DNA of 64,000 bases, taken from the NCBI GenBank assembly GCA_041752275.1, contig JBGSHK010000008.1:70543-134542 (forward strand), read 5' to 3'. The DNA comes from Minisyncoccia bacterium (GTDB taxonomy: Bacteria; Patescibacteriota; Minisyncoccia; Phycocordibacterales; CAIZLB01). Shown one piece after another: positions 31,345 to 62,441 of the stretch. Below the pieces are notes generated by a model, which saw nothing but the letters and a program-made list of their open reading frames with translations, did not search any database and was not told the DNA's origin. The position numbers and the translations under genes are program-made. Position 1 is the stretch's first letter, and every line of letters begins with the position of its first letter.

Positions 31345-32709
31345 CTAAAACACCACCGTCATAGTCGTTCCACAATTAAACTCACTCTCAACAAATATTT
31401 TTCCACCTAAATATTTCTCCGTATAATACTTCGCTGAAGATAAGCCTACACCGCAATTTTCTTTTTCTTTATTTTTACTCGAGTAAAAATGATCAAATAT
31501 AATCTCAAGATTTTCATCTTTGATACCAATGCCATTGTCGGACACGGATACATAGTTTTTATTACCATGTTTACCTAAAAGTATTTCAATCTGATATTTT
31601 TCCTTATAATTTACTTCTTTGTCCTGCAAACAAGCTTCATATGCATTTGATATTAAATTTAAAATTATATGATTTAGTATCGATTTTTTTGTATACAGTA
31701 TTTGATCCACAACACTTTCATATTTTACTATTATTTCAACCTCATTTTTAAAATAATTATTCTTTACAAGTTGAATCAATTCATTTACTTCTGTAACAAG
31801 GTTAAACTTCTCATCCTCAATCTTAAGCCCTATTTGTTTTCTTATATTTTGCAACATAGATACGAGTTTTTCATGTGTATTTTTAATACTTAAAATTGTA
31901 TTTTTTAATTCTTTATCTGTTGATATGTTTTCATGATTTAAATTTTCTAAATGAAGACTCATTGTCTGTATAGGTGTTATGAGATCATGATAAAGTCCAC
32001 CAGATAATTTACCAAATTCTATCATGTGATACATTTTAGATATTTTTTCCATTTGCATTTGTTTTATTTCATATGTTTTTTCTCTAACGATTATCTCTAG
32101 ATTATCTCTTTCTTTTTTGAGAATATTTTCAACTCTCATAGCTCTATTTAAGGTTTTATTTTGTTCTTGATTAAATTTTATTAATAAGAATGATATAAAA
32201 ATAAACATTATTGAAAATTCTATAATATCATTTATTCCAAAAGATGAATTGTTATGCCAAGATGTTTTTATATTTAAATAATTACGCAAATAATTTCCAA
32301 TAAAAATTGAAGCTATCAAAATAAAATTATAGATAAAATTTTCCTTAGTTTTTGAAGTTAGTGACAGTATAACAACACAAAATAAATATGAGATTAAAAT
32401 AGAAGGTAAATCAAAACCCCACCATATACCGGCTATAAAATTTAAAATTAATATTGTTGATATTAGTATAATTTTTGATAAATAAATTTTATTTTTTAAA
32501 TTTAAAATATAAGAAATTAAGAATATTATAGGAATAATTATGGAAAAATATAAAGGAAATAATTTTACTGTTTTATTTTCTATAAAATTATTTATATAAC
32601 TTAAGATTAAAAGTATTGAATATAATACAGAAAAACATAAAGCAAATATGTTTACATAAGACAATATTAACTTTATGCGATTTTTTTCTGCATTATTTAT
32701 ATAATTCAT
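31345..32709 (-). CDS. Membrane sensor histidine kinase.
   Basis: About 6 N-terminal TM helices. H-box GGLYHDLITPIQTM. HATPase motifs VSDNGIGI and GVGLSSAKYY. Confidence 0.75.
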   Translation of the reverse strand: MNYINNAEKNRIKLILSYVNIFALCFSVLYSILLILSYINNFIENKTVKLFPLYFSIIIPIIFLISYILNLKNKIYLSKIILISTILILNFIAGIWWGFDLPSILISYLFCVVILSLTSKTKENFIYNFILIASIFIGNYLRNYLNIKTSWHNNSSFGINDIIEFSIMFIFISFLLIKFNQEQNKTLNRAMRVENILKKERDNLEIIVREKTYEIKQMQMEKISKMYHMIEFGKLSGGLYHDLITPIQTMSLHLENLNHENISTDKELKNTILSIKNTHEKLVSMLQNIRKQIGLKIEDEKFNLVTEVNELIQLVKNNYFKNEVEIIVKYESVVDQILYTKKSILNHIILNLISNAYEACLQDKEVNYKEKYQIEILLGKHGNKNYVSVSDNGIGIKDENLEIIFDHFYSSKNKEKENCGVGLSSAKYYTEKYLGGKIFVESEFNCGTTMTVVF

Positions 32710-47528: not shown

Positions 47529-48179
47529 ATGAACTTTGAAACAAATCTCTTCGTTATGAGGGTTTTCTTTATTGCAACCCTTATTATTTTCTTTTCATTC
47601 TTAGAATGGTGGGTACATAGATATCCAATGCATAACAAAAAGTTTAAAAAACTTCCTGTTCTTGGATTACTTTTTGAAAGTCATGTTGGTTCAGGGGGAC
47701 ATCATAGTCGTTATGGCTATTGTCCAAATCATCCCGAGTGTCATGACGAAGATCATGAACATGAACCGATTTTGCAAAAAATTTGGTTTGGGTTTTTGGT
47801 AGCTTTTGCTGGAAGTATTCCTTTCTTTAGTTTGGAAATCCTGACTACTTTTGAATACAATCTTACTGCCATATGCGCTCTTGGAATCTATACCTACTAC
47901 TGGCTCTTTGAGTTAGTACATGTGGCAACACATGATGGAAAGCATTGGCAAAGGGTTTTACTTAAAAAGATTGATTACTTTGATATCATGCTGAGTCATC
48001 ATATGATACACCACACTATCAAGTTCAACATGAACTTTACTTTGGTAAATCATTGGTGTGATTATTTGTTTGATACCAAGTATGAGGCTAAAAAAAGTTC
48101 AGTGTTGATGGTCCGGATTATTACTTGCGTAGTCTTACTTGGACTCTTGATATCATTTCTGACTCTGGTTTACAGGTGA
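47529..48179 (+). CDS. Membrane His-box protein (fatty-acid hydroxylase/desaturase superfamily-like).
   Basis: HRYPMH, HVGSGGHH, HDEDHEH, HVATHDGKH and SHHMIHH histidine clusters with TM helices. Confidence 0.4.
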   Translation: MNFETNLFVMRVFFIATLIIFFSFLEWWVHRYPMHNKKFKKLPVLGLLFESHVGSGGHHSRYGYCPNHPECHDEDHEHEPILQKIWFGFLVAFAGSIPFFSLEILTTFEYNLTAICALGIYTYYWLFELVHVATHDGKHWQRVLLKKIDYFDIMLSHHMIHHTIKFNMNFTLVNHWCDYLFDTKYEAKKSSVLMVRIITCVVLLGLLISFLTLVYR

Positions 48180-51542: not shown

Positions 51543-52292
51543 TTAAACAGATTTTTTTAAATATTCTAAATCTTCCGGTGTGTTAATGGTTAATATCTCA
51601 TCTTTGTCAACGATTTCAAAAGAAACATTTTTGAATTGATTGATTGCTACTTCAATTATCCTGCTAACTGCATATTCACCATTTGGCAGTTGTGGTATCA
51701 AATGTTTATTGTTCTCAAAATAATATTTATTTAAACAAATTATTCCTGTACCAGATAAGTGTCCATATTCACCAATTTCTTCTTTATTTACAGGTCTGAC
51801 ACCTAAAACTCTTTTTTTATCTGTTAGATATCCAACCTTATGTAACCCTTCATTAAACTCTCTTGTTAAAAGTAAACTAACCATAGCTTTTGTGCTTGTG
51901 TGTGTTTTAATTAACCTCTCTAATGTTTGAGGTTTAAGAAACCAGCCATTATCAGCAGGTAAAACTAAAACTAGATCAGTATTATTTGAAATTTTATTCA
52001 TTCCTGAAACAACAGCACCTAAAGTACCGTCTAAAATTTCCTGTATGGCAAATAAAATATTTGACAAATGATTTAAATTTTTTTTTACATGGTCTTCAAC
52101 ATCTTTAGATTTATAACCAATTACAATTATAATATTTTCAATTTTTAATTTGCTTACCGTATTAATAATTTTAACTAGAATAGATTGATTCTTAATTGTT
52201 GTAAGTGGTTTAGGAATTTGCCCACCCAATCTAGTACCTTTTCCTGCGGCCATTATTATTACAGATGTTTTTTTATCATTAATCATAGACAT
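51543..52292 (-). CDS. IspD/TarI/LicC-like cytidylyltransferase (NTP_transferase fold).
   Basis: N-terminal VIIMAAGKGTRLGGQIPKPL matches the AAG.G.R...PKQ signature. Overlaps the upstream gene by 14 nt, so probably one operon. Confidence 0.6.
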   Translation of the reverse strand: MSMINDKKTSVIIMAAGKGTRLGGQIPKPLTTIKNQSILVKIINTVSKLKIENIIIVIGYKSKDVEDHVKKNLNHLSNILFAIQEILDGTLGAVVSGMNKISNNTDLVLVLPADNGWFLKPQTLERLIKTHTSTKAMVSLLLTREFNEGLHKVGYLTDKKRVLGVRPVNKEEIGEYGHLSGTGIICLNKYYFENNKHLIPQLPNGEYAVSRIIEVAINQFKNVSFEIVDKDEILTINTPEDLEYLKKSV

Positions 52293-54594
52293 TATTCAAT
52301 AATACAGAAATATTTCTATTTAATAAAGTTGCAATTTCTTCTATCTTTGATTCTTTTGATGATTTTTCTAAATTGTTAATTATCTTAGAATACAAGTTTA
52401 ACATATCAAAAATTGCCATAATAATCGACTCTTTTGCAACTTCTTTATTGTAAATTTTCTCAACTTTTTTAATAATAAAATCTAATTCTTTATTTAAAAT
52501 ATTTGAATTTACTAAAATGATTCTTGATAAGAATTTTCCAATATCACAGCTATGTTTTCCTAATGCAAGCATTGGGTCAAGAAGGGTAAATTTATTTTCC
52601 AATTTAGAATAAATTATATTTTCAGGTTTAAAGTCACCAAAAATAATATCACACTTATTAAGTAGTTCAGGTTTTTCTTCTAGAATAGAATTTAGTTTAT
52701 TAATAATTTCTTTTAATTTATTTACTTCATCAGTATTACTTAAACCTAAATAATTTGGTAGGGATAATAATTTAAAATTTCTGGCACAATGATAATTTAA
52801 ATCATCAGTCTCAATTAATAAATTAGAGTCTACAGGGATATTTGTCAACAAATGGTGGGTATTTTTAAGTACGTCTAGAGTCTCAGAAACCATAGATATT
52901 GTTTCTGGGTTATATGATTTTATAATATTATCTAAGACTTCACCCTCAACTTGATCCATAAGTATCGCTGTACCATCTTCAATTAACTTAATATTTTTTG
53001 GTACATTAACACCGATTTTTGAAAGTTCAAAAAGCTGACTAGCATGTGTATTTATTCTTTTAATATCTCTAACCTGTTCTTTGGAGTCACTAAAATACAT
53101 TTTAAGTATCTTTCGGGTCACGTTCGACAATACAACTTTACTTTTTTCAGGAGTACCTATTCTGAATACTTTATCACTTAAATCGAGACCATACTGACCG
53201 TAATTTATATTAAGAATTTTCTCTTCCTCTTTGAGGATAATTTCCATTGTGTTTAAAATCACCAACCATTCCTGATCAATTATTTTTTCTTGACCACCAT
53301 TTAATATTTTTCTTGATAATTCTAACGCTTTTATTATTTCCTTGTCTTTTGATTTATCTAACCACCGATCCAGATCATTCATATCTATATTATTAATATT
53401 CCTAATATGTAAAAGATAGAAAACCGATATAGAAAATAATTTTGCAAATCTTCTCATCTGCTCATCTGAATTATTTAATCTTGAAATCTTCTTTTCACAT
53501 TCTCTGTAGTTTATTAAACTAGCCCTGTAACAATCATACTTAATATCTTGCACACTAACATCAATTTTAATTTTCTTTTTATCTATTGAAAAGAAGTGTT
53601 GATTTACTCCATGTGCTAAAATTGGACCTCGATTGAATCTCGAGATTTTTTCACTTAGTAAATCACTTAAATTATTAATACTTAAATCTAATTTAGTATC
53701 AAATTGTTCCTTAAACCTAAGTTGTAAATCACTTAATTCGGAAAAATGTGCTAGATACCCATCTGATAGAATATATAAATCGATATCGGAACAACCATTC
53801 TTAAAGAAGTGTGTGATTTGTGAACTACCCCAGATAAACATGTAAGTATCACTACCTAGAAGACCTATAACTCGCTCTCTCGCTATAAAACTTAAAAGAA
53901 CATTTCTAATAGGATTAGAATAATAAGTATCGATTCTGTGATCACCTTCATTCATTTCAATTGAAAATATAACACCTTGCCCATACAGATCTTTGTATTC
54001 CTGAATAGATTTAGACAGTTTAGATACATCAAGAGCACTATCATTTTTGGAATAAAATAAACTAATCGGCAAACCTGTTTTAACTAGTACATCTAAACCA
54101 TCAAAACAGTATCTCGGTTTCATTAGATCTTGGAGTTCAAAGTTCATTGATTCAGCGGGTTTGCAATTTCCTTCAGACACTAAAAATTTTATTGAATCAT
54201 TAAAGTCTTCATGAATCCAATCTGAACCAAGTCCAAAAACTGGGGAGAATAAGCTTACTCCTTTTAAATACTTATACTTAGATAAATCAATTTTTTGTAT
54301 AATTAAAGACGAGAACGAATAAGCTATTATAACAAATGACTTTTCAGAACTTTCTAGACTCTGTAGTAATAGTTCGATATTTTTGACTGTGTTTGTGACT
54401 GAAAATTCACCAATCTCTTCATATAGTCCAGGATGTCGGTATTCGTGAACAGTAAGACCTTTACCTCTAAGATCTGTCATGAATAAAAAATCTTTTTTTC
54501 TACCAGGAACACCTGGCAAGAAAACATATTCCACAGTCTCATTGTTTTTTTTCATATTTGAATATATTCTACTACGAAAATTACTACTTAGCAA
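52279..54594 (-). CDS. Three-domain protein: alpha/beta-hydrolase-like N-domain, minimal nucleotidyltransferase (pol-beta superfamily) domain, and a C-terminal APH/choline-kinase-like phosphotransferase.
   Basis: IAYSFSS nucleophile-elbow-like segment. NTase motif GSSQITHFFKNGCSDIDLYIL. Kinase Brenner motif IIFGDFKPENII and downstream LLDP. Confidence 0.55.
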   Translation of the reverse strand: MLSSNFRSRIYSNMKKNNETVEYVFLPGVPGRKKDFLFMTDLRGKGLTVHEYRHPGLYEEIGEFSVTNTVKNIELLLQSLESSEKSFVIIAYSFSSLIIQKIDLSKYKYLKGVSLFSPVFGLGSDWIHEDFNDSIKFLVSEGNCKPAESMNFELQDLMKPRYCFDGLDVLVKTGLPISLFYSKNDSALDVSKLSKSIQEYKDLYGQGVIFSIEMNEGDHRIDTYYSNPIRNVLLSFIARERVIGLLGSDTYMFIWGSSQITHFFKNGCSDIDLYILSDGYLAHFSELSDLQLRFKEQFDTKLDLSINNLSDLLSEKISRFNRGPILAHGVNQHFFSIDKKKIKIDVSVQDIKYDCYRASLINYRECEKKISRLNNSDEQMRRFAKLFSISVFYLLHIRNINNIDMNDLDRWLDKSKDKEIIKALELSRKILNGGQEKIIDQEWLVILNTMEIILKEEEKILNINYGQYGLDLSDKVFRIGTPEKSKVVLSNVTRKILKMYFSDSKEQVRDIKRINTHASQLFELSKIGVNVPKNIKLIEDGTAILMDQVEGEVLDNIIKSYNPETISMVSETLDVLKNTHHLLTNIPVDSNLLIETDDLNYHCARNFKLLSLPNYLGLSNTDEVNKLKEIINKLNSILEEKPELLNKCDIIFGDFKPENIIYSKLENKFTLLDPMLALGKHSCDIGKFLSRIILVNSNILNKELDFIIKKVEKIYNKEVAKESIIMAIFDMLNLYSKIINNLEKSSKESKIEEIATLLNRNISVLLNNVYD

Positions 54595-54639: not shown

Positions 54640-55266
54640 ATGAATAAAGTTATTTTAATCAGACACGCTGAAAGCGAAAGTAATATAGGTATAGTATTTA
54701 GACATCAAAATATTATAAAAATAACTGAAAATGGTATTAAACAAGCAAATGATTTGCTTGAGATACTTGATAAGCCAGATAAAATTATCTGTTCTAAGTA
54801 TTTACGAACTATCGAAACAGCAGAGCCTATGATGTTAAAGTTTCCAGAAGTAGAAACGCATATTTGGATAGACATACATGAGTTTAAACCTGTAAATACA
54901 GACAAACATGTTGGAATAACAAGAGAAATAAGAGATAGTTTTGCAAAAGAGTATTGGGATAAAATAGATCCTATCTACTGTGACGGTGGAGATGCTGAAA
55001 GTTTTAAAGACTTTGTAAACAGAGCTAATCAATCAATTATAAAAATGAAAAATCTCAAGGGAGTTAATTATATTTTTTCACATGAAAACTTTATTCGCTG
55101 TGTTTTGATTTTATTAAATGAATTTAAAGAATTTAATAATGAAGAAAAAACAAAAGATTTATATGAACGTATAATGAAAAAATTCACTGAATCATATAAG
55201 ACAAGTGAACCATCTATTAAAAATACTGATGTTTTTGATGTGTCTGGTTTACTTATAGAGTATTAA
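54640..55266 (+). CDS. Histidine phosphatase superfamily (phosphoglycerate mutase-like) protein.
   Basis: N-terminal ILIRHAESESN (RHG-type catalytic His motif). Confidence 0.6.
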   Translation: MNKVILIRHAESESNIGIVFRHQNIIKITENGIKQANDLLEILDKPDKIICSKYLRTIETAEPMMLKFPEVETHIWIDIHEFKPVNTDKHVGITREIRDSFAKEYWDKIDPIYCDGGDAESFKDFVNRANQSIIKMKNLKGVNYIFSHENFIRCVLILLNEFKEFNNEEKTKDLYERIMKKFTESYKTSEPSIKNTDVFDVSGLLIEY

Positions 55267-55348: not shown

Positions 55349-56392
55349 ATGTTCACAGACTTACTTTCACTTATATTTAACAGAAACCTATCGACAAGAA
55401 AAATAGAATTTGCTTTTATAGTCCACCCCAGAAACACATATGACATTTTTCGTAAATACAAATTACTAAAAATATTTCCCAAAAAGGTTGTTGATTTATT
55501 TCTACTAATAATGTGGCCGACATACGGGGGAAGTATAAAAATTGATCAAGGTGAAAAAGGTACTAAGTGGGGAGCAATTATAATAAGTCCTTTGACAGGT
55601 AAACAGATGTTAAGATACAGAAAACTAGCTGCAAACACTGTGTTTATGGCTAGTAAGCTGGCTAAAATATATGGTTCAAAAGTTATAGGATTAGGTGCAC
55701 TTACGTCAGTTGTCACAGACGGGGGAATATATGTGAGTGATAAACTAAAAGGTTTACATTTTACATCAGGTAACGGCTTAACTGCAGCAACAACATCAAA
55801 CGATATTTTAAGAATAATAAAAGATAAAAATATTACAGGACCGATATCTGTTATTGGTGCCACTGGATCAATAGGAAAGGGTATAACAAAAGTTTTGGAT
55901 GAAGGTTGTAAAAATGATTTGATATTAATCGGAAAAAATAAAGAAAGAACAATTGGTCTGGCTCATGAGTTGTCAAGAAATAATGTTATTTGTACAACTG
56001 ACATAGAAGAAAATAACAAAGCTGAAATAGTTATTGTTACAACAAGTGCAAATGGAGCAATAATTGATCATCATTTATTAAAAAATGCTAAAATAATATA
56101 TGATATAACTCAGCCAAAAAATACTCCTGATCACATAATGGAAGGTGATGCTATATCATATATAGATGGTGGCTTAATACAGTTACCTGAAAATATCAGA
56201 ATAGGTATGGACATAAGTTTACCAAAAGGAATTGCTTTTTCTTGTCTTTCTGAAACCCTGCTTATAGCCATATCAGAAAAATATTACCTAAAATCAGAAA
56301 AAGATTTAAAAATTGAAAACATTAAAGAATTGTCTAAATTAGCAATGGAAAATAATTTTAATTCTTATTTAATCCAAAATGGAAATAAATAA
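55349..56392 (+). CDS. NAD(P)-binding oxidoreductase, acyl-ACP reductase (AAR)-like / amino-acid dehydrogenase-like.
   Basis: Rossmann motif VIGATGSIGKGITKVL at mid-protein. AAR-like length and layout. Confidence 0.4.
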   Translation: MFTDLLSLIFNRNLSTRKIEFAFIVHPRNTYDIFRKYKLLKIFPKKVVDLFLLIMWPTYGGSIKIDQGEKGTKWGAIIISPLTGKQMLRYRKLAANTVFMASKLAKIYGSKVIGLGALTSVVTDGGIYVSDKLKGLHFTSGNGLTAATTSNDILRIIKDKNITGPISVIGATGSIGKGITKVLDEGCKNDLILIGKNKERTIGLAHELSRNNVICTTDIEENNKAEIVIVTTSANGAIIDHHLLKNAKIIYDITQPKNTPDHIMEGDAISYIDGGLIQLPENIRIGMDISLPKGIAFSCLSETLLIAISEKYYLKSEKDLKIENIKELSKLAMENNFNSYLIQNGNK

Positions 56393-58025
56393 TTTTTTTA
56401 CATTTGAAAACATAGTTTTAGCTTCAACTGCTTTAGTAAATTTTATATTATTTATTATAATATTTGTTAGAAGAAACAAAAGCAAAAACACTTATTTTTT
56501 TTTAGGTTTTATACTTTCTGTTATGGGTTGGGTTTTAGGAGTTTTATTTTTTAGAGTTTTAGAAGGTAAGTATTTATTACTAGTAACAAGGTTTGTTTAC
56601 TTTGCTGCAACACTTATACCTTTTTTTATAATTTTATTTACCCAAACTTTTCCTAAAAGAGATTTAGGTTTTTCAAAAAAGAAAACTATTATATTTTTAA
56701 CATTTCCCATACTATTTTTAATTCTAACATCTATACCTGGGGCTATTATCAAAGATATCAATGAAATAAATGGATATAAATCAATTATTTTTGGACCATT
56801 TTATTATTTATATTTTGTATACATAATAACTTATTTTTTGATTGGAATAATTTTGATGATAAAAAATTATTTTAAACTAAAAGGTATTGAAAGAAATCAG
56901 ATTGAAATTATATTCTTAAGTATACTAGTTTCTTCTTTCGTGGGTATGTCAACCAACTTAATTATGCCTGCATTTAATAATTTTTCTCTTTTTTGGGTTG
57001 GGCCATTTTTTAGTGGATATATGGTTTTAACAATAGGTTATGCCATGATCAAATATGGCCTGTTTAATATAAAACTTATAGCCACAGAGTTTGCAGCCCT
57101 GTCTACTTGGGTATTAATGTTTGTTAAATTGATGTTAGATGAAAGTCTAACAGATAAACTTATAGATGGTGTAGTTTTGATAATTTTAATTATAAGTGGT
57201 TTATATGTTATAAGAAGTGTTATGAAGGAAATAGAGCTTCGTGAAAAAGATGATCAACTTGTAAGTGATATGGCCGGATTGAATCAAACTCTTGAAAAAA
57301 CAAATGTAAAACTCCAAGAACTCGACCAAAAAAAGTCCGAGTTCATGTCACTTGCCACCCATCAACTCCGCGCACCCTTAACCGCCATGCGTGGATACTA
57401 CTCCATGATACAAGATGGAACTTTTGGTAAGATCAACAACCCTGAACTAGAAGATGTCATCGGTAAAATTTCACGCTCAACTACAGACCTAACCATGATA
57501 GTGGAGGACTATCTTAACATCTCACGTATAGAGCAAGGTAAAATGCAATACAATTTTGTAAGTATAGACGTTGCAGAAATAGTGCAGGATGTTGTGAAAG
57601 AGGTAACTCCAACTGTTGCACATGCGGGACTCAAACTAAATTTGGAATATGATCAAAAACAAAAATATATTGTAACTGTAGATAAAGGAAAAATTAAACA
57701 AGTTATATTTAACATAATAGATAACTCTATAAAATACACACCAAAGGGGAGTGTGGACATTTCTATCAAGAAAACAGATAGTGATAAAAAAGTTGTTATA
57801 TCCATTAAAGACACAGGTGTTGGCATAAAACCAACTGTATTACCTCAATTATTTCAAAAATTTACCCGAGCACCGGATGCATCTGAAACAAATATACTTG
57901 GTACAGGACTTGGTTTATATGTTGCAGATCAAATACTGAAGGCACATCATGGTCGAGCATGGGCCGAGTCAGAAGGTCAAGGGAAAGGGTCTCAATTTTA
58001 TATAGAATTAAACTTATTAAAATAA
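56379..58025 (+). CDS. 7TM-receptor sensor histidine kinase (paralog A).
   Basis: Seven N-terminal TM helices. Coiled coil. H-box LATHQLRAPLTAMRGY. HATPase IKDTGVGIK and GTGLGLY. Confidence 0.7.
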   Translation: MEINNFFTFENIVLASTALVNFILFIIIFVRRNKSKNTYFFLGFILSVMGWVLGVLFFRVLEGKYLLLVTRFVYFAATLIPFFIILFTQTFPKRDLGFSKKKTIIFLTFPILFLILTSIPGAIIKDINEINGYKSIIFGPFYYLYFVYIITYFLIGIILMIKNYFKLKGIERNQIEIIFLSILVSSFVGMSTNLIMPAFNNFSLFWVGPFFSGYMVLTIGYAMIKYGLFNIKLIATEFAALSTWVLMFVKLMLDESLTDKLIDGVVLIILIISGLYVIRSVMKEIELREKDDQLVSDMAGLNQTLEKTNVKLQELDQKKSEFMSLATHQLRAPLTAMRGYYSMIQDGTFGKINNPELEDVIGKISRSTTDLTMIVEDYLNISRIEQGKMQYNFVSIDVAEIVQDVVKEVTPTVAHAGLKLNLEYDQKQKYIVTVDKGKIKQVIFNIIDNSIKYTPKGSVDISIKKTDSDKKVVISIKDTGVGIKPTVLPQLFQKFTRAPDASETNILGTGLGLYVADQILKAHHGRAWAESEGQGKGSQFYIELNLLK

Positions 58026-58026
58026 T

Positions 58027-59673
58027 ATGATTTTACACGAAATAGTAACAATTGAATCAGTAGCTTTATTGTCTACAGCTTTTTTAAATATAGTACTTTT
58101 TATTATTTTAATAACAAATGATAAAAAAAACAAAAATATATATTTTTTTTCAGGATTTATATTTTCCATGTTTTTTTGGGTAGCAAACACTTTTTTATTT
58201 TATATAATAAATGATAAAGATGTTTTACTGATAAATACTCATCTAATATACCTAGCACCACCTTTTATACCTGTTTTCATGATACTTTTTGCAAAAACTT
58301 TTCCCAAAGAAAAATTAAATTTTTCAAGAAGAAAACTGGCTATTTTTCTAACCCCTGCTTTTATTGTTTCTACAATATCTTTGATACCCAATGCTGTTAT
58401 AGACGATGTTGTTATCATAAATGAATATTATAAATATATTACATATGGACCTTTATATCCTTTATATTTTATATATATAACATTTTATTTTTACATGGTT
58501 ATAGATGTAATGATTAGAAAATATTTAATACTTAAAGGTTTACAAAGAAATCAAGTTGAAACCATTTTCTTAACATTAATTATAGGTTCTTTTGTTGGTG
58601 TATTTTCAAGTTTAATCATGCCAACATATGGAAATTTTGATTTATTCTGGGTAGGATCTTTTTATAGTGGATACTTAGCCGTTGCAGCATTTTATGGAAT
58701 AATAAAATATGGTCTTTTTGACATAAAACTTGTAGCAACGGAGTTCTTAGCTTTTTCAACATGGGTATTGTTACTTATAAAAATATTTTTTAATGATAGT
58801 TTACAGAACAGAATAATAGACTCAGTAATCCTTGTAATAATAATTATATCCAGTATATTATTAATAAAAACAGTTAAAAAAGAGATAAAATTAAGAGAGA
58901 AAGATGACACATTACTAATTGATATAACCAATTTGAATGCAAGACTCGAAAACACAAACATAAAACTTAAAGAGTTAGACCAAAAAAAATCTGAATTTAT
59001 ATCATTGGCAACACATCAGCTTAGAACACCATTAACTTCGATGAAAGGATATTCTTCCATGTTACTTGATGGAACTTTTGGTAAAATAAATAATCCAGAA
59101 ATAGAGGAAGCTATAAGTAAAATACATAGATCATCTATAGATTTATCTATGATAGTTGAAGACTATTTAAACATATCACGTATAGAGCAAGGTAAAATGC
59201 AATACAATATTTCAAGTATAAATTTAATAGATTTAATAAAAAATATTTTAGAGGAATTTAAATCTACAGCAAACAGATTACATCTTAATTTAAATTTACA
59301 TTATGATAATAATTTTGATTATAAAATAAGAGCTGATGAAGGTAAAATAAAACAAGTTTTTGTAAACATTATAGACAATGCCATTAAATATACTCCAGCA
59401 GGGGATATTGATGTTTTTATAGAAAAAATAGATGCACAAAAGAAAATATTAGTTAGAATAAAAGATACAGGAATAGGTATAAAAAAAGAAGTTTTACCAA
59501 ATCTTTTTCACAAATTTGTTCGAGCGCCGGACGCATCTCGTGTTAATATACTTGGTACAGGATTAGGACTTTACGCTGCAGGGGAAATATTAAAAGCTCA
59601 CAAATCTCGCGCATGGGTAGAATCAAACGGTGAAGGACATGGGTCAACTTTTTATGTAGAGATAAATATTTAA
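58027..59673 (+). CDS. 7TM-receptor sensor histidine kinase (paralog B). Same length as A and a tandem duplicate of it.
   Basis: Architecture collinear with 56379-58025. H-box LATHQLRTPLTSMKGY. HATPase IKDTGIGIK and GTGLGLY. Confidence 0.7.
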   Translation: MILHEIVTIESVALLSTAFLNIVLFIILITNDKKNKNIYFFSGFIFSMFFWVANTFLFYIINDKDVLLINTHLIYLAPPFIPVFMILFAKTFPKEKLNFSRRKLAIFLTPAFIVSTISLIPNAVIDDVVIINEYYKYITYGPLYPLYFIYITFYFYMVIDVMIRKYLILKGLQRNQVETIFLTLIIGSFVGVFSSLIMPTYGNFDLFWVGSFYSGYLAVAAFYGIIKYGLFDIKLVATEFLAFSTWVLLLIKIFFNDSLQNRIIDSVILVIIIISSILLIKTVKKEIKLREKDDTLLIDITNLNARLENTNIKLKELDQKKSEFISLATHQLRTPLTSMKGYSSMLLDGTFGKINNPEIEEAISKIHRSSIDLSMIVEDYLNISRIEQGKMQYNISSINLIDLIKNILEEFKSTANRLHLNLNLHYDNNFDYKIRADEGKIKQVFVNIIDNAIKYTPAGDIDVFIEKIDAQKKILVRIKDTGIGIKKEVLPNLFHKFVRAPDASRVNILGTGLGLYAAGEILKAHKSRAWVESNGEGHGSTFYVEINI

Positions 59674-60479
59674 TTTAGTCTTAAAAATTGTTAAATTAAG
59701 ACTAACAGGGGAGTACGATATCATTTTTGTAAAGTTTTAATACATACATACAATGTTCTATAATGATTATGTCATGCAAACACAACAACAAGAACTGTTT
59801 TTTGATTTTTTTGGCGAATGGATTTATCAAGTTAATTTCTCAATTTAAGATTAACTAGATTCATTTCATTTAAATAAACTCATAGGTGGGGAAATATAAA
59901 CTAATAATTTATAAACCCCACCTTTTTTATTTGTCTGGGTTTATAGAGGCTACATATTCGCACCACGGGGAGTACTTCTAGTTTACTAACTCACTTTGTT
60001 CGTAAGTAAACTATGTCGCACAATATATCTTTTGCGACATTATATATTAAATATAATTATAATGCATCTAATAAATAAACCTGGCTTAGTCTACATATAT
60101 CTGTGGCCGACTTTATGTATATTTTCAATTAATCAATATGATCACTTATATCAGATATTTATATAATTTGGCTAAATTTGGAATTTTTTGATTTTTCTTA
60201 TATTTATAGATTTCACTCGATTATATAGCTTTTTTGAGGCAAAATTTGCCCGTTTAAGCACCGTTGTTTTATAAAGTGATACTTTGATACCTTTTGATTT
60301 AATCTCAAACATCCCCTATTTTACTTTTTTTCTAAAACTTGACATAAGTACTTATATGTTATAAATTATTTAGGTTAAGCATTAAAATAATAAAAAAATG
60401 ACAATATTAATTTCCATAATCTGTGTAGCTTTAGCACTTTTATTATACTGAACTCAAATTATTATTATTTGTATTAGGT

Positions 60480-60516
60480 TATGCCATGATTATAGGAATG
60501 TTAAAATCATGGCATA
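60480..60516. promoter_or_regulatory. Perfect 12-bp inverted repeat TATGCCATGATT...AATCATGGCATA with a 13-nt spacer.
   Basis: Read directly. Lies downstream of the minus-strand NRAMP gene. No T-run follows it, so it is not a classic terminator. Confidence 0.4.
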
Positions 60517-60554
60517 TAAGAAAAAAAATTTTAAATAAATAGATAAATAGTCAA

Positions 60555-60590
60555 ACACAAAAAACCTCGCAGGTAATAAATCTGCGAGGT
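60555..60590 (-). terminator. Rho-independent terminator of the NRAMP gene.
   Basis: ACCTCGCAG / CTGCGAGGT 9-bp stem. On the minus strand a T-run follows it (the A-run at 60559-60564 on the plus strand). Confidence 0.55.
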
Positions 60591-60631
60591 AAAATTTTGT
60601 CCGTTTTTTTTGAAAGTTCTATATAAACAAA

Positions 60632-61936
60632 CTATATAAACAAACTCACAATAGTCGCAATAGATGTTAGTCCCATAAGCACAGCTATAACCCAACCAAC
60701 AACATTTACAAGCTTAGAGTTTTTAAATTCTCCCATAATCTTTTCTTTACTACTTATATAAACTATACAGATAATAATCACAGGTGCTATTATACCGTTT
60801 GCTACAGCTGAATATATAAGTGCCTTGATTGGATTTATACCTAAAAAGTTTATAAGTATACCTATAACTATAGATATAATAATAACTCCATAAAAAGCCT
60901 TTGCTTCTTTTAAACGTCTATATAAACCCTCCTTCCAGTTCATACTTTCTGATATAGCGTATGCTGTTGATCCAGCTAAAACAGGTATAGAAAGTAAACC
61001 TGTGCCAATAATACCTAAGGCAAACAAAAGACTAGCAAATGGGCCACCAAATGGCTCCAGAGCTTTTGCAGCGTCTGCAGCGGTATCTATGTTAGTTATT
61101 CCTGAGGAAAACAGGGTGTTTGCTGTAACTGCTATGATAAAGAACATAACAAGGTTTGATAAAAACATTCCCGTCCAGACATCATATCTCATTTCTTTTA
61201 TCTCTGCTTTATTTGTACCTAAGCGTGATTCATCTGTAACTTTTCCCTGAGATATTTGTTCTTCAACTTCTTGAGATGTTTGCCAGAAAAATAAGTATGG
61301 TGATATAGTTGTACCCAATATACCAGTTATAAGTAAAAGTTGAGTTTTGGTAAAATCAATTTGTGGAATAAAACTGTCATGAAATATCTGTCCCCAATCC
61401 ATTTTTATAATAAAAGCTGTGGCAATGTATGAAAATAAACTTATAACTAGCCATTTTAAATATTTTGTATATTGTTTATATGGAATAAATATTTCTAAAA
61501 CTAAAATAAACAATCCTGTCGCTATAACAAGTAATGGAAAAGATAGTTGAGGGTACAAAAGTTCAACTGCTTTTGCCATAGCCCCCAGGTTGGCACCGAT
61601 GTTTAATGTGTTGGCTAAGAAAAGAAGTATTGTAGTTAAAAATAAAACTTTTTTAGAAAAAACTTTTTTTATGTTAGCGGCTAAACCTTGACCTGTAACT
61701 AAAGCTATGCGTGCACACATCTCTTGTATTGCTGCCATAAGAGGAAAAGTCCAGGCCGCCATCCAAAGCAAACCTGTGCCATATTGAGCTCCTGTTTGAG
61801 AATATGTGGCTATACCAGAAGGATCATCATCTGCTGCACCTGTTATGAGACCGGGTCCGAGTTTTTTAAAATAGTCTTCCCCTTTTTTTAAGTCTTTCTC
61901 GAGTTCTTTTTTTATTTCATCCATGATGTGAATCAT
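60632..61936 (-). CDS. mntH: NRAMP-family divalent metal (Mn/Fe) transporter.
   Basis: GPGLITGAADDDPSGIATYSQTGAQYG matches the NRAMP GPG...DPGN...AGAQFG signature. About 11 TM helices. Confidence 0.75.
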   Translation of the reverse strand: MIHIMDEIKKELEKDLKKGEDYFKKLGPGLITGAADDDPSGIATYSQTGAQYGTGLLWMAAWTFPLMAAIQEMCARIALVTGQGLAANIKKVFSKKVLFLTTILLFLANTLNIGANLGAMAKAVELLYPQLSFPLLVIATGLFILVLEIFIPYKQYTKYLKWLVISLFSYIATAFIIKMDWGQIFHDSFIPQIDFTKTQLLLITGILGTTISPYLFFWQTSQEVEEQISQGKVTDESRLGTNKAEIKEMRYDVWTGMFLSNLVMFFIIAVTANTLFSSGITNIDTAADAAKALEPFGGPFASLLFALGIIGTGLLSIPVLAGSTAYAISESMNWKEGLYRRLKEAKAFYGVIIISIVIGILINFLGINPIKALIYSAVANGIIAPVIIICIVYISSKEKIMGEFKNSKLVNVVGWVIAVLMGLTSIATIVSLFI

Positions 61937-62024: not shown

Positions 62025-62441
62025 TTAATTTTTTATTTTATTTTTTTTCTTTTTTATTCTCTTTCTGTGTATAACACGTTTTCTTATCATATTTGCTGAT
62101 CTTTCTATACCAAGAAAGTTTATCAAGGCAATATAATAGCCTGTAGATCTGAGTTTAAATCTTTTTCCAAAACTTACTTTACCTATAAAGCTTTCTACAG
62201 ACAGAATATAAAATTCCATTTTATCGTGACATTCACGACATAATGTAACTAAATCCACCTTACAATTCTCATCTTTTAGATGTACTTTTGGTATCACATG
62301 ATGCCAAGTAAGTTTGTTTTCATCACGACAATTACACTTTAAGCAAAAGTCAGTTTTCTTAAATTTGCGAACTATTATTATTTTGTGCTCCGGTTCTGGT
62401 TTAGATTCTGGTTTAGATTTTGGTTTTGATGATAGCTCCAC
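62025..62441 (-). CDS. HNH endonuclease domain protein.
   Basis: CLKCNCRDENKLTWHHVIPK...N...LCRECHDKME gives an HNH H-N-H motif plus zinc-binding Cys pairs. N-terminal KPESKPEPE repeats. Confidence 0.6.
   Translation of the reverse strand: MELSSKPKSKPESKPEPEHKIIIVRKFKKTDFCLKCNCRDENKLTWHHVIPKVHLKDENCKVDLVTLCRECHDKMEFYILSVESFIGKVSFGKRFKLRSTGYYIALINFLGIERSANMIRKRVIHRKRIKKKKNKIKN

Follow-up and report, generated by a model that had tools for sequence, protein, structure and literature searches.

In a 64,000-nucleotide (nt) stretch of contig JBGSHK010000008.1 from a Minisyncoccia bacterium (hereafter, the window), it was found that the gene of a putative thioester reductase overlaps with the first of two tandem genes for paralogous sensor histidine kinases, kinase A and kinase B, each of which has a seven-transmembrane (7TM) domain. 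Judging from the gene neighborhoods analyzed in this study, the reductase and the 7TM sensor form a conserved module of Patescibacteria, and the locus in the window is one instance of it. The window has a G+C content of about 30%, and the close relatives all come from assemblies of Patescibacteria, the candidate phyla radiation (CPR). The features of the module are as follows (aa, amino acid residues; ORF, open reading frame; TM, transmembrane helix; GPCR, G-protein-coupled receptor).

55349-56392, plus strand: putative NAD(P)H-dependent thioester reductase of the AAR family (COG5322), 347 aa (ORF, Pfam, NCBIfam, phmmer against the PDB)
55856-55876, plus strand: GATGSIG dinucleotide-binding motif, reductase aa 170-176 (sequence, homolog alignment)
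56243-56245, plus strand: codon of reductase Cys299, the counterpart of the acyl-enzyme Cys294 of AAR (alignment to 6jzq)
56379-56392, plus strand: overlap of the reductase stop and the kinase A start, 14 nt, a junction of the translational-coupling type (sequence)
56379-58025, plus strand: kinase A, HisKA_7TM sensor histidine kinase, 548 aa, with an A-type DHp domain (RGYYSMIQD) (Pfam; exact protein P0125)
56418-57071, plus strand: HisKA_7TM domain of kinase A, aa 14-231, a seven-helix bundle of the GPCR fold in which a beta-hairpin separates TM4 from TM5
57075-57218, plus strand: TM8-TM9 helical hairpin of kinase A, aa 233-280, followed by the coiled coil (AlphaFold model, loop charges)
57333-57539, plus strand: HisKA/DHp domain of kinase A, aa 319-387, with the H-box T-H-Q-L-R-A-P-L; His328 codon at 57360-57362 (Pfam, HK853 alignment)
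57681-58016, plus strand: HATPase_c domain of kinase A, aa 435-546, with intact N, G1, F, and G2 boxes (Pfam)
58027-59673, plus strand: kinase B, paralogous HisKA_7TM sensor histidine kinase, 548 aa, with a B-type DHp domain (KGYSSMLLD) (Pfam; exact protein P0144)
58066-58725, plus strand: HisKA_7TM domain of kinase B, aa 14-233 (Pfam)
59014-59016, plus strand: His330 codon of kinase B, in the H-box T-H-Q-L-R-T-P-L

A sequence-only reading of the window had described three plus-strand genes with junctions of 14 nt and 1 nt, and ORF calling reproduced these coordinates exactly. The ATG codon of kinase A is located within CAAAATGGAAATAAATAA at the junction with the reductase gene, and the TAA codon of kinase A is separated from the ATG codon of kinase B by 1 nt (58026). 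The three genes are one tightly packed unit. The overlap between the reductase and kinase A genes suggests translational coupling. A promoter scan stayed at the background level (45 found vs 43 expected). The sole Rfam match, to a small nucleolar RNA inside the kinase A coding region, was below the threshold and was taken as chance.

The reductase-sensor pair in Patescibacteria

Does the reductase gene keep this neighbor in other genomes? One genome per species was scanned with the reductase as the seed, which gave 38 loci, and these were analyzed with a profile hidden Markov model (HMM) of the 7TM domain and by measuring the junctions. In all of the 30 Patescibacteria loci with downstream DNA, a HisKA_7TM sensor is encoded downstream of the reductase. 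The sensor gene is directly adjacent and on the same strand in 29 of them, and the junctions range from -29 to +21 nt in nearly all cases. Since the pairing recurs in 30 of 30 related loci, it is far beyond chance. The flanks of the pair are fully different between lineages, and the identity of the reductases goes down to 29%. The only broken pair is that of L012, in which the sensor gene lies 4 kb away. An insertion (L012:11192-13840) was found exactly between the two genes; it has an AbiEii-type toxin gene, an IS200-like transposase gene and, just upstream of the AbiEii gene, a 206-aa ORF with no Pfam match.

Outside the CPR, none of the four reductase homologs (Firmicutes and Bacteroidales) has a sensor gene beside it. 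Two of them, in L024 and L026, lie directly after a class-III aminotransferase gene, which is a split form of the PigE fusion. Among the 30 Patescibacteria loci, the gene after the reductase in L027 encodes a HisKA_7TM-GAF-GAF-HD-GYP protein and not a kinase. Thus, the conserved partner of the reductase is the 7TM sensor and not the kinase output. The link between the reductase and the sensor appears to be functional rather than accidental, as it persists with the output domain swapped. A gene for a PlsC-type acyltransferase (PF01553) is directly upstream of the reductase gene in 13 loci and within two genes of it in 3 more.

The same question can be asked from the kinase side. Two loci (L047 and L048) share the synteny of the window, with a peptidyl-prolyl isomerase gene followed at some distance by two tandem 7TM kinase, Nramp, photolyase, PIF1 helicase, and tRNA synthetase genes. 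The reductase slot of these loci holds a gene for a class-I S-adenosylmethionine (SAM) methyltransferase (Methyltransf_20), which overlaps with the first kinase gene by 7 nt. The methyltransferase has no similarity to the reductase. A metagenome scan with the kinase alignment yielded 80 loci and 87 kinases with upstream DNA. The immediate upstream gene on the same strand encodes the reductase in 27 cases (plus 3 divergent ones) and a SAM methyltransferase in 21 (13 Methyltransf_20-like, 6 UbiE-like, and 2 Methyltransf_11/CMAS-like). An acyltransferase occupies the slot in 2 cases and another 7TM kinase in 4-6, while a FabH-like enzyme, a class I/II aminotransferase, and a transglutaminase-like protein are singletons. 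When the partners were overlaid on a neighbor-joining tree of the kinases, the reductase and methyltransferase labels changed 5 times (permutation mean 16.5, minimum 9), and the labels of five partner classes changed 6 times (permutation mean 21.7, minimum 17). The enzyme-kinase partnerships thus seem to be stable, with few swaps.

Reductase, membrane sensor, and kinase core

The reductase matches a Shikimate_DH-type Rossmann family in Pfam. In NCBIfam, the best match is the PigE N-terminal domain (1e-31), and AAR (TIGR04058) also matches (2.6e-16). Both scores are far below the model cut-offs (109.8 vs 850 for PigE; 59.9 vs 449.7 bits for the AAR equivalog). On these scores, the protein reads as a member of the superfamily and not as an AAR equivalog. 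Searching the PDB with phmmer retrieved the Synechococcus AAR 6jzq (E 3e-14) and PigE 4ppm (E 6e-14). An NAD(P)H-binding Rossmann motif is present in GATGSIGKG (aa 170-178, nt 55856-55882), whose GATGSIG aligns with VGATGDIG of AAR. The sequence FSC-LSETLL aligns with FAC-FAEAMLL of 6jzq, and C299 corresponds to Cys294. Residues G170, G173, S174, and G176 of the former motif and C299, E302, and T303 of the latter do not vary among 17 homologs, whose identity goes down to 27%. In the AAR mechanism, the acyl group moves to Cys294 and hydride transfer from NADPH then frees the aldehyde; PigE's N-terminal domain has been re-interpreted as a thioester reductase with an AAR-like mechanism (PMC10829540). 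I infer that the reductase in the window likewise turns an acyl thioester into an aldehyde. The label of an "AAR-like" Rossmann oxidoreductase, given in the sequence-only reading, holds at the level of superfamily and catalytic residues, with full-length homology to a solved AAR and an invariant catalytic Cys. A phmmer search with an aldehyde-deformylating oxygenase (ADO) sequence gave no match in the window at E<=1 and none in the reductase-seeded loci at E<=0.01. An N-terminal amphipathic helix of the reductase was considered as a docking or membrane element and rejected, because only some lineages have the helix.

Both kinases have HisKA_7TM, HisKA, and HATPase_c domains above the Pfam gathering thresholds (9.8e-18, 3e-12, and 6.9e-26 for kinase A; 6.1e-12, 1.9e-15, and 1.8e-22 for kinase B). 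HisKA_7TM (PF16927) scores 65.3 and 46.3 bits, with a gathering threshold of 28.6, and positions 2-222 of the 224-position model are covered. An earlier doubt, that the 7TM region may be a generic membrane anchor, is answered by this match to a recognized modular sensor family with a GPCR-like fold. The seven helices counted before are there as the 7TM domain, but the AlphaFold model has nine helices, namely the 7TM bundle and the TM8-TM9 hairpin. In the kinase A model, the helices of the hairpin are at 231-253 and 257-289, and the loop charges agree with the positive-inside rule. The bundle is predicted to have an N-out/C-in topology with seven-helix GPCR packing. Structural alignments to GPCRs show 4-16% identity, and the fold matches span all GPCR classes. 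The DRY, NPxxY, and CWxP motifs are absent from kinases A and B. The bundle might have had a docking site in a preferentially conserved cytoplasmic face, but this idea was dropped; there is no inside/outside bias, and the TM7-TM8 loop alone stands out. Several HisKA_7TM proteins (P0247, P0256, P0276, P0291, P0367, and P0370) have 2-4 tandem 7TM domains in one polypeptide of about 940-1560 aa. They continue into GAF/PAS domains and a canonical H-E kinase core, and are a fused counterpart of the tandem sensor genes.

The nearest solved structure of the kinase core is Thermotoga HK853 (PDB 2c2a/3dge, E 1e-35). The phospho-acceptor His328/His330 is present, both proteins have the kinase and ATP-binding domains of a HisKA-type kinase, and the ATP-binding box columns are nearly invariant among 50 homologs. 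The H-box differs. The sequence S-H-E-L-R-T-P-L of HK853 aligns with T-H-Q-L-R-A-P-L of kinase A and T-H-Q-L-R-T-P-L of kinase B, so that the canonical H-E/D-x-x-T/N is replaced by H-Q-L-R-A (57360-57365) and H-Q-L-R-T (59014-59019), respectively. Gln follows the His (position H+1) in all of the 114 close homologs, and the same holds for 87 of the 110 nearest 7TM-domain representatives, while the PAS/GAF-containing HisKA_7TM kinases retain H-E. The commonest H-box of the clade is HQLRTPL, which keeps the phosphatase Thr, and the kinase A subclade has Ala or Gly (HQLRA/HQLRG) instead of the phosphatase Thr/Asn at H+4. One sub-clade of reductase-linked kinases (L025, L031, L033, and L035) has an H-H H-box.

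It has been reported that the acidic H+1 residue is needed for kinase activity and T/N for phosphatase activity, and that E-to-Q and E-to-A substitutions at H+1 are kinase-negative and phosphatase-positive in CrdS, NtrB, and HK853 (PMC3510030). According to a preprint, this H-box rule may not apply to every HisKA-like family (bioRxiv 10.64898/2026.02.27.708494). I regard H-Q as an unexplained anomaly of the clade and not as proof of inactivity. The replacement of H-E/D by H-Q suggests altered, possibly weak, autokinase chemistry. A division of labor between kinase A as the kinase and kinase B as the phosphatase, based on Ala/Thr at H+4, was rejected, as the kinase B ortholog of L044 and most B-type proteins have Ala.

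Kinases A and B are 55% identical with 2 gaps. The identity is 47.6% in the 7TM domain, 62.5% in the coiled coil, 78.3% in the DHp domain, and 56.6% in the catalytic domain; an ortholog in L004 with equal sensor divergence (49%) has a DHp identity of just 59%. A single kinase is encoded in L043, which has the same synteny and a reductase of 86% identity, and two kinases are encoded in L044-L046 (reductase identity 84%). Split-based bootstrap values are 100% for the pair of kinase B and the second kinase of L044, 100% for the orthologs of kinase A, and 100% for the kinase A orthologs together with the single kinases of L002/L005, excluding kinase B. The kinase A orthologs are 78-80% identical and the kinase B ortholog in L044 is 65% identical, so kinase B seems to evolve faster. 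A-type (RGYYSMIQD) and B-type (KGYSSMILD) proteins are encoded together on at least 7 contigs. These pairs and the bootstrap values bear out the old duplication that had been proposed from the sequence. Sites that are conserved within a type and differ between the types are mostly in the membrane (33 membrane, 10 cytoplasmic; odds ratio 3.4, p 4e-4) and are densest in TM7, TM2, TM3, and TM6. These patterns support the view that, after an old duplication, the input diverged and a similar output surface was retained.

Regulators and rival explanations

Two profile HMMs run over all six frames of the window, and the Pfam scans as well, gave no receiver domain, and thus kinases A and B have no cognate response regulator beside them. 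A kinase and its regulator are typically encoded side by side, although this is not a strict criterion. Bacteria often have orphan kinases, and kinases beside metabolic genes are common as well. The window has one more histidine kinase, which is an unrelated orphan:

31345-32709, minus strand: third histidine kinase, 454 aa (HATPase_c 6e-18, H-box YHDLITP)

This protein has several N-terminal hydrophobic segments and a canonical H-D H-box, and its HisKA domain was not called by Pfam. Its neighbors are genes for a metallo-beta-lactamase-fold protein and a D-lactate-dehydrogenase-like FAD oxidase, and no regulator gene is close to it. An ether-lipid pathway (acyltransferase, reductase, and alkyl-DHAP synthase) by way of the FAD-linked oxidase of the window was rejected, as the oxidase is LctD/GlcD-like. 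The count of three histidine kinases and no receiver in the window, made earlier by eye of sequence, agrees with the profile HMM and Pfam results.

The same lack was seen elsewhere. Four syntenic relatives (L002, L043, L047, and L048) have no receiver in the 8-10 kb downstream, which speaks against a regulator just beyond the end of the window, and there is none in L043-L046. None of the 80 kinase-seeded loci (599,537 bp) has a receiver within 5 kb. Thus, what had been called an unusual wiring stands as to the missing linked regulator, but such a lack is the norm for this kinase clade. Only four reductase-seeded loci (L009, L010, L021, and L042) have receivers within 10 kb on either side:

L021:13239-13610, receiver
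L042:4401-4763, receiver
L010:20178-20555, receiver
L021:4633-5001, receiver
L009:13230-14015, receiver

All of them are stand-alone (120-125 aa) or double (261 aa) receivers with no DNA-binding or other output domain. In L021 a receiver gene directly follows the kinase gene, and in L042 one is near the kinase gene. The stand-alone receivers at these few loci indicate that regulators exist in these organisms but are systematically unlinked from the kinases. The regulator of kinases A and B had been supposed to be distant or absent; a distant one is likelier than none, since a few relatives have a stand-alone receiver beside the kinase, as in L021.

I favor the following explanation, with a probability of about 0.5 for the whole. 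The reductase would convert an acyl thioester, probably with a lipid-derived acyl chain, into an aldehyde. The 7TM bundle would perceive a membrane-resident or lipid-like cue tied to the substrate or product of the partner enzyme, and kinases A and B would read two related cues. The signals of both kinases would reach a single unlinked regulator, and this would probably be a stand-alone receiver like those beside the kinase in a few relatives. The CPR bacteria have been reported to scavenge lipids and to have PlsC/PlsY but no PlsX, acyl carrier protein (ACP), or fatty-acid synthesis (PMC7242380). A lipid-derived substrate is suggested by this reported scavenging, the PlsC-type neighbor, and the kinds of alternative enzymes in the slot.

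Several points weigh against this explanation. Co-transcription of the reductase and kinase genes is deduced from one thing, the gene spacing. Kinases A and B are not members of the GPCR family; the resemblance is one of fold, and not of demonstrated homology or ligand class. Neither a ligand nor a characterized member is reported for the HisKA_7TM family in the searchable literature. The PlsC-type acyltransferase gene is absent from the window and its closest relatives, and the lipid theme comes from family-level annotation (PF01553, the AAR family, and the CMAS-like and UbiE-like methyltransferases). The reported lack of ACP and fatty-acid synthesis in the CPR (PMC7242380) bears on the natural thioester substrate of the reductase. 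The H-Q H-box matches substitutions that abolish kinase activity in CrdS and NtrB (PMC3510030) and fits poorly with a conventional phosphorelay. Since a methyltransferase replaces the reductase in the same synteny, the kinases do not seem to depend on the product of the reductase as such. About 25-30% of the kinases have no recognizable upstream enzyme, and the relatedness of the organisms contributes to the clustering of kinases by partner.

Is the aldehyde itself the ligand? The sequence-only reading had named a lipid or aldehyde product of the reductase as a possible ligand. The fatty aldehyde, or an alcohol derived from it, may bind to the 7TM bundle as product feedback, in which case kinases A and B would respond to compounds of related chain length or oxidation state. 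A reductase with every catalytic element of an aldehyde-forming AAR, the obligatory pairing of the reductase with the sensor, and the clustering of the A/B differences in TM2, TM3, TM6, and TM7 would all suit such a feedback, as would a fold shared with many lipid-binding GPCRs. However, the fold matches are uninformative on lipid ligands as they span all GPCR classes. In L047 and L048, the same A-type and B-type pair is behind a methyltransferase, which implies that the pair works without an aldehyde product. I consider this feedback rather unlikely.

It is somewhat less probable still that there is no signaling tie at all, that is, that the kinases are general sensors of envelope or membrane stress and that the enzyme encoded before them is a passenger co-expressed with them in a small, compact genome dense in operons. 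Patescibacteria are gene-dense and have strong local housekeeping synteny (for example, dnaK-dnaJ ... trpS-aspS around the module), and the upstream gene is variable when seen from the kinase side. A passenger would not be expected to stay adjacent through the full turnover of both flanks, at reductase identities down to 29%, or through the replacement of the kinase output by HD-GYP. Moreover, an enzyme swap restores the same arrangement in kind (an enzyme and a sensor), the kinases cluster by partner far above the permutations, and the non-CPR reductase homologs are never accompanied by a sensor.

An enzyme-receptor complex at the membrane, with no response regulator, is unlikely on the present evidence. 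Control would be by binding or direct phosphorylation, in either direction, and H-Q would mark either a non-canonical phosphoryl chemistry or a switch that is ATP-dependent and works through conformation alone. The overlap of stop and start codons at the junction is kept across the family, the kinase clades follow the type of the partner enzyme, various soluble enzymes occupy the same slot, and receivers are missing from the window and from the vicinity of all 80 kinase-seeded loci. On the other hand, strict conservation of His328/His330 and the ATP-binding boxes is expected of a working phosphorelay, and the DHp surface is the most conserved part, as with a conserved partner regulator. The stand-alone receivers of L021 and L042, the general frequency of orphan kinases, the kinases without an upstream enzyme, and the patchy occurrence of the candidate docking helix of the reductase also count against the complex. 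A bolder form of it is a long shot: the H-Q clade would be a regulator-free receptor that acts directly with the preceding soluble enzyme, gating or being gated by lipid-modifying chemistry in lipid-scavenging episymbionts, at their membrane. A speculative addition to this is that the AAR-like enzyme might run oxidatively and give an activated acyl group (thioester or acyl phosphate) to PlsC/PlsY where PlsX, ACP, and fatty-acid synthesis are lacking.

It is very unlikely that kinases A and B are phosphatase-biased or pseudo-kinases, with little autokinase activity owing to Gln at H+1, which dephosphorylate or sequester a regulator charged by another donor such as the third histidine kinase or acetyl phosphate: the kinase-negative, phosphatase-positive substitutions cited above, the phosphatase Thr of the common HQLRTPL, and the canonical H-D of the third kinase fit such a role, but kinase A and most close homologs also lack the phosphatase Thr/Asn, so that the rule would remove both activities, which is implausible under strong constraint, and the rule may not be valid for all HisKA-like families, while the ATP-binding boxes are conserved.

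Flanking genes, known systems, and meaning

A stretch of 959 bp on the 3' side of kinase B (59674-60632) is ORF-free and AT-rich (26% G+C); neither an ORF of at least 60 aa nor protein similarity was found in it. A decayed gene was rejected there, as there is no protein similarity and just a short conserved hairpin. The matching gap is 140 bp in L043 and has a DUF1653 gene in L002. A strong terminator-like hairpin with an 11-bp stem including 6 G-C (60564-60590) adjoins the 3' end of the Nramp gene. A perfect 8-bp inverted repeat, ATGTCGCA-N12-TGCGACAT, is present at 60013-60040 of the window, L043:7812-7839, and L002:12952-12979. It sits between the convergent kinase and Nramp genes, inside about 90 nt that are 81-84% identical across the three lineages, and the surrounding intergenic DNA is not alignable. 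Candidate roles of the repeat are a bidirectional terminator, a small RNA, and a binding site for a protein. Between the Nramp and photolyase genes, there is a small Cys/His-rich ORF (62025-62441, minus strand, 138 aa, GTG start). Its position is taken by an HNH endonuclease gene in L047 and by nothing in L043 and L048, which suggests a mobile HNH insertion.

Upstream of the reductase gene by 82 nt, there is a histidine-phosphatase-family gene (54640-55266), on the strand opposite to a pair of minus-strand genes (51543-54594). In this pair, an NTP_transferase/IspD-like gene (51543-52292, minus strand) overlaps by 14 nt with the gene of a 771-aa protein (52279-54594, minus strand), which has no Pfam family and whose C-terminal third weakly matches Bud32/protein kinases. 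The pair is kept in L001 and L043 and may belong to a nucleotide-activated head-group or sugar pathway. Farther upstream, a gene of about 215-240 aa with a faint FA_hydroxylase (PF04116) match (47529-48179 of the window; L044:5920-6645; L045:1966-2670; L047:3317-3961) recurs beside the cyclophilin gene in the lineage of the window and precedes the kinase module by one to a few genes.

Each component family is already known (the COG5322/AAR superfamily, HisKA_7TM, and HK853-like cores), as is, in general terms, the GPCR-like fold of 7TM kinases. The reductase resembles cyanobacterial AAR (6jzq/6jzu, TIGR04058) of the AAR-ADO alkane pathway over about 250 homologous residues, including GxTGxIG, the acyl-enzyme Cys, and an xxE(T/A)(M/L)L motif. 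It differs in falling below the equivalog cut-off, in having a membrane sensor kinase instead of ADO as the partner, and in a host that reportedly lacks ACP and fatty-acid synthesis (PMC7242380). The reductase-transaminases of the PigE/KecF type (4ppm; prodigiosin and koreenceine) include the best NCBIfam match, and two of the non-CPR homologs directly follow a class-III aminotransferase gene. In contrast, the Patescibacteria genes have no adjacent aminotransferase gene; the 7TM sensor gene is their invariable neighbor, and a PlsC-type acyltransferase gene often lies upstream of them. The kinases share the DHp domain, the phospho-acceptor His, and the N/G1/F/G2 boxes with HisKA (HPK1) kinases of the HK853/WalK/PhoR type, but have H-Q-L-R-A/T, no adjacent regulator, and a nine-helix membrane sensor rather than a periplasmic/PAS one. 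Membrane-state sensing of the DesK type and the accessory-dependent kinases BceS/BceAB and LiaS/LiaF have adjacent regulators, and the partners are transporters or membrane proteins. The analogy with these systems lies in the intramembrane input and in signaling tied to a co-encoded protein that is not a two-component protein; there is no sequence relationship, and the partner in the window is a soluble enzyme with no adjacent regulator.

HisKA_7TM (PF16927) kinases have been noted mainly in haloarchaea (Galperin et al. 2018, PMC5847659). Both kinases of the window pass the Pfam threshold over the full model, and the Patescibacteria clade adds the H-Q H-box, the systematic upstream enzyme gene, and two extra TM helices. 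Prokaryotic 7TM proteins with a GPCR fold (Lee et al., Nature 2026, PMC13581589) differ from the present kinases, whose identity to GPCRs is 4-16% and whose output is a covalently attached kinase and not a G protein. In the searchable literature (HisKA_7TM, COG5322, PF12147, and Parcubacteria two-component systems), nothing was found on the reductase-sensor pairing, and no literature was found on two-component signaling in Patescibacteria. The obligatory reductase-7TM coupling, the swappable enzyme slot with tracking kinase clades, the clade-wide H-Q, and the systematically unlinked regulator are thus undescribed in that literature. The phylum-wide pairing, the swappable slot, and the H-Q H-box also go beyond the sequence-only reading.

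Patescibacteria comprise a large share of bacterial diversity, are mostly uncultured, and are thought to obtain membrane lipids from hosts. In these bacteria, the module consists of a GPCR-fold H-Q sensor with almost never a linked regulator, one stable soluble enzyme partner, and an occasional A/B expansion. This combination is surprising and testable for specialists in two-component signaling or CPR biology. If the regulator-independent reading were true, the module would be a new signaling architecture. If the coupling is functional, it would give a concrete way into membrane or lipid sensing in CPR bacteria, a first genomic clue to what the HisKA_7TM family perceives, and a natural case in which to test if HisKA kinases can dispense with the "essential" acidic residue.

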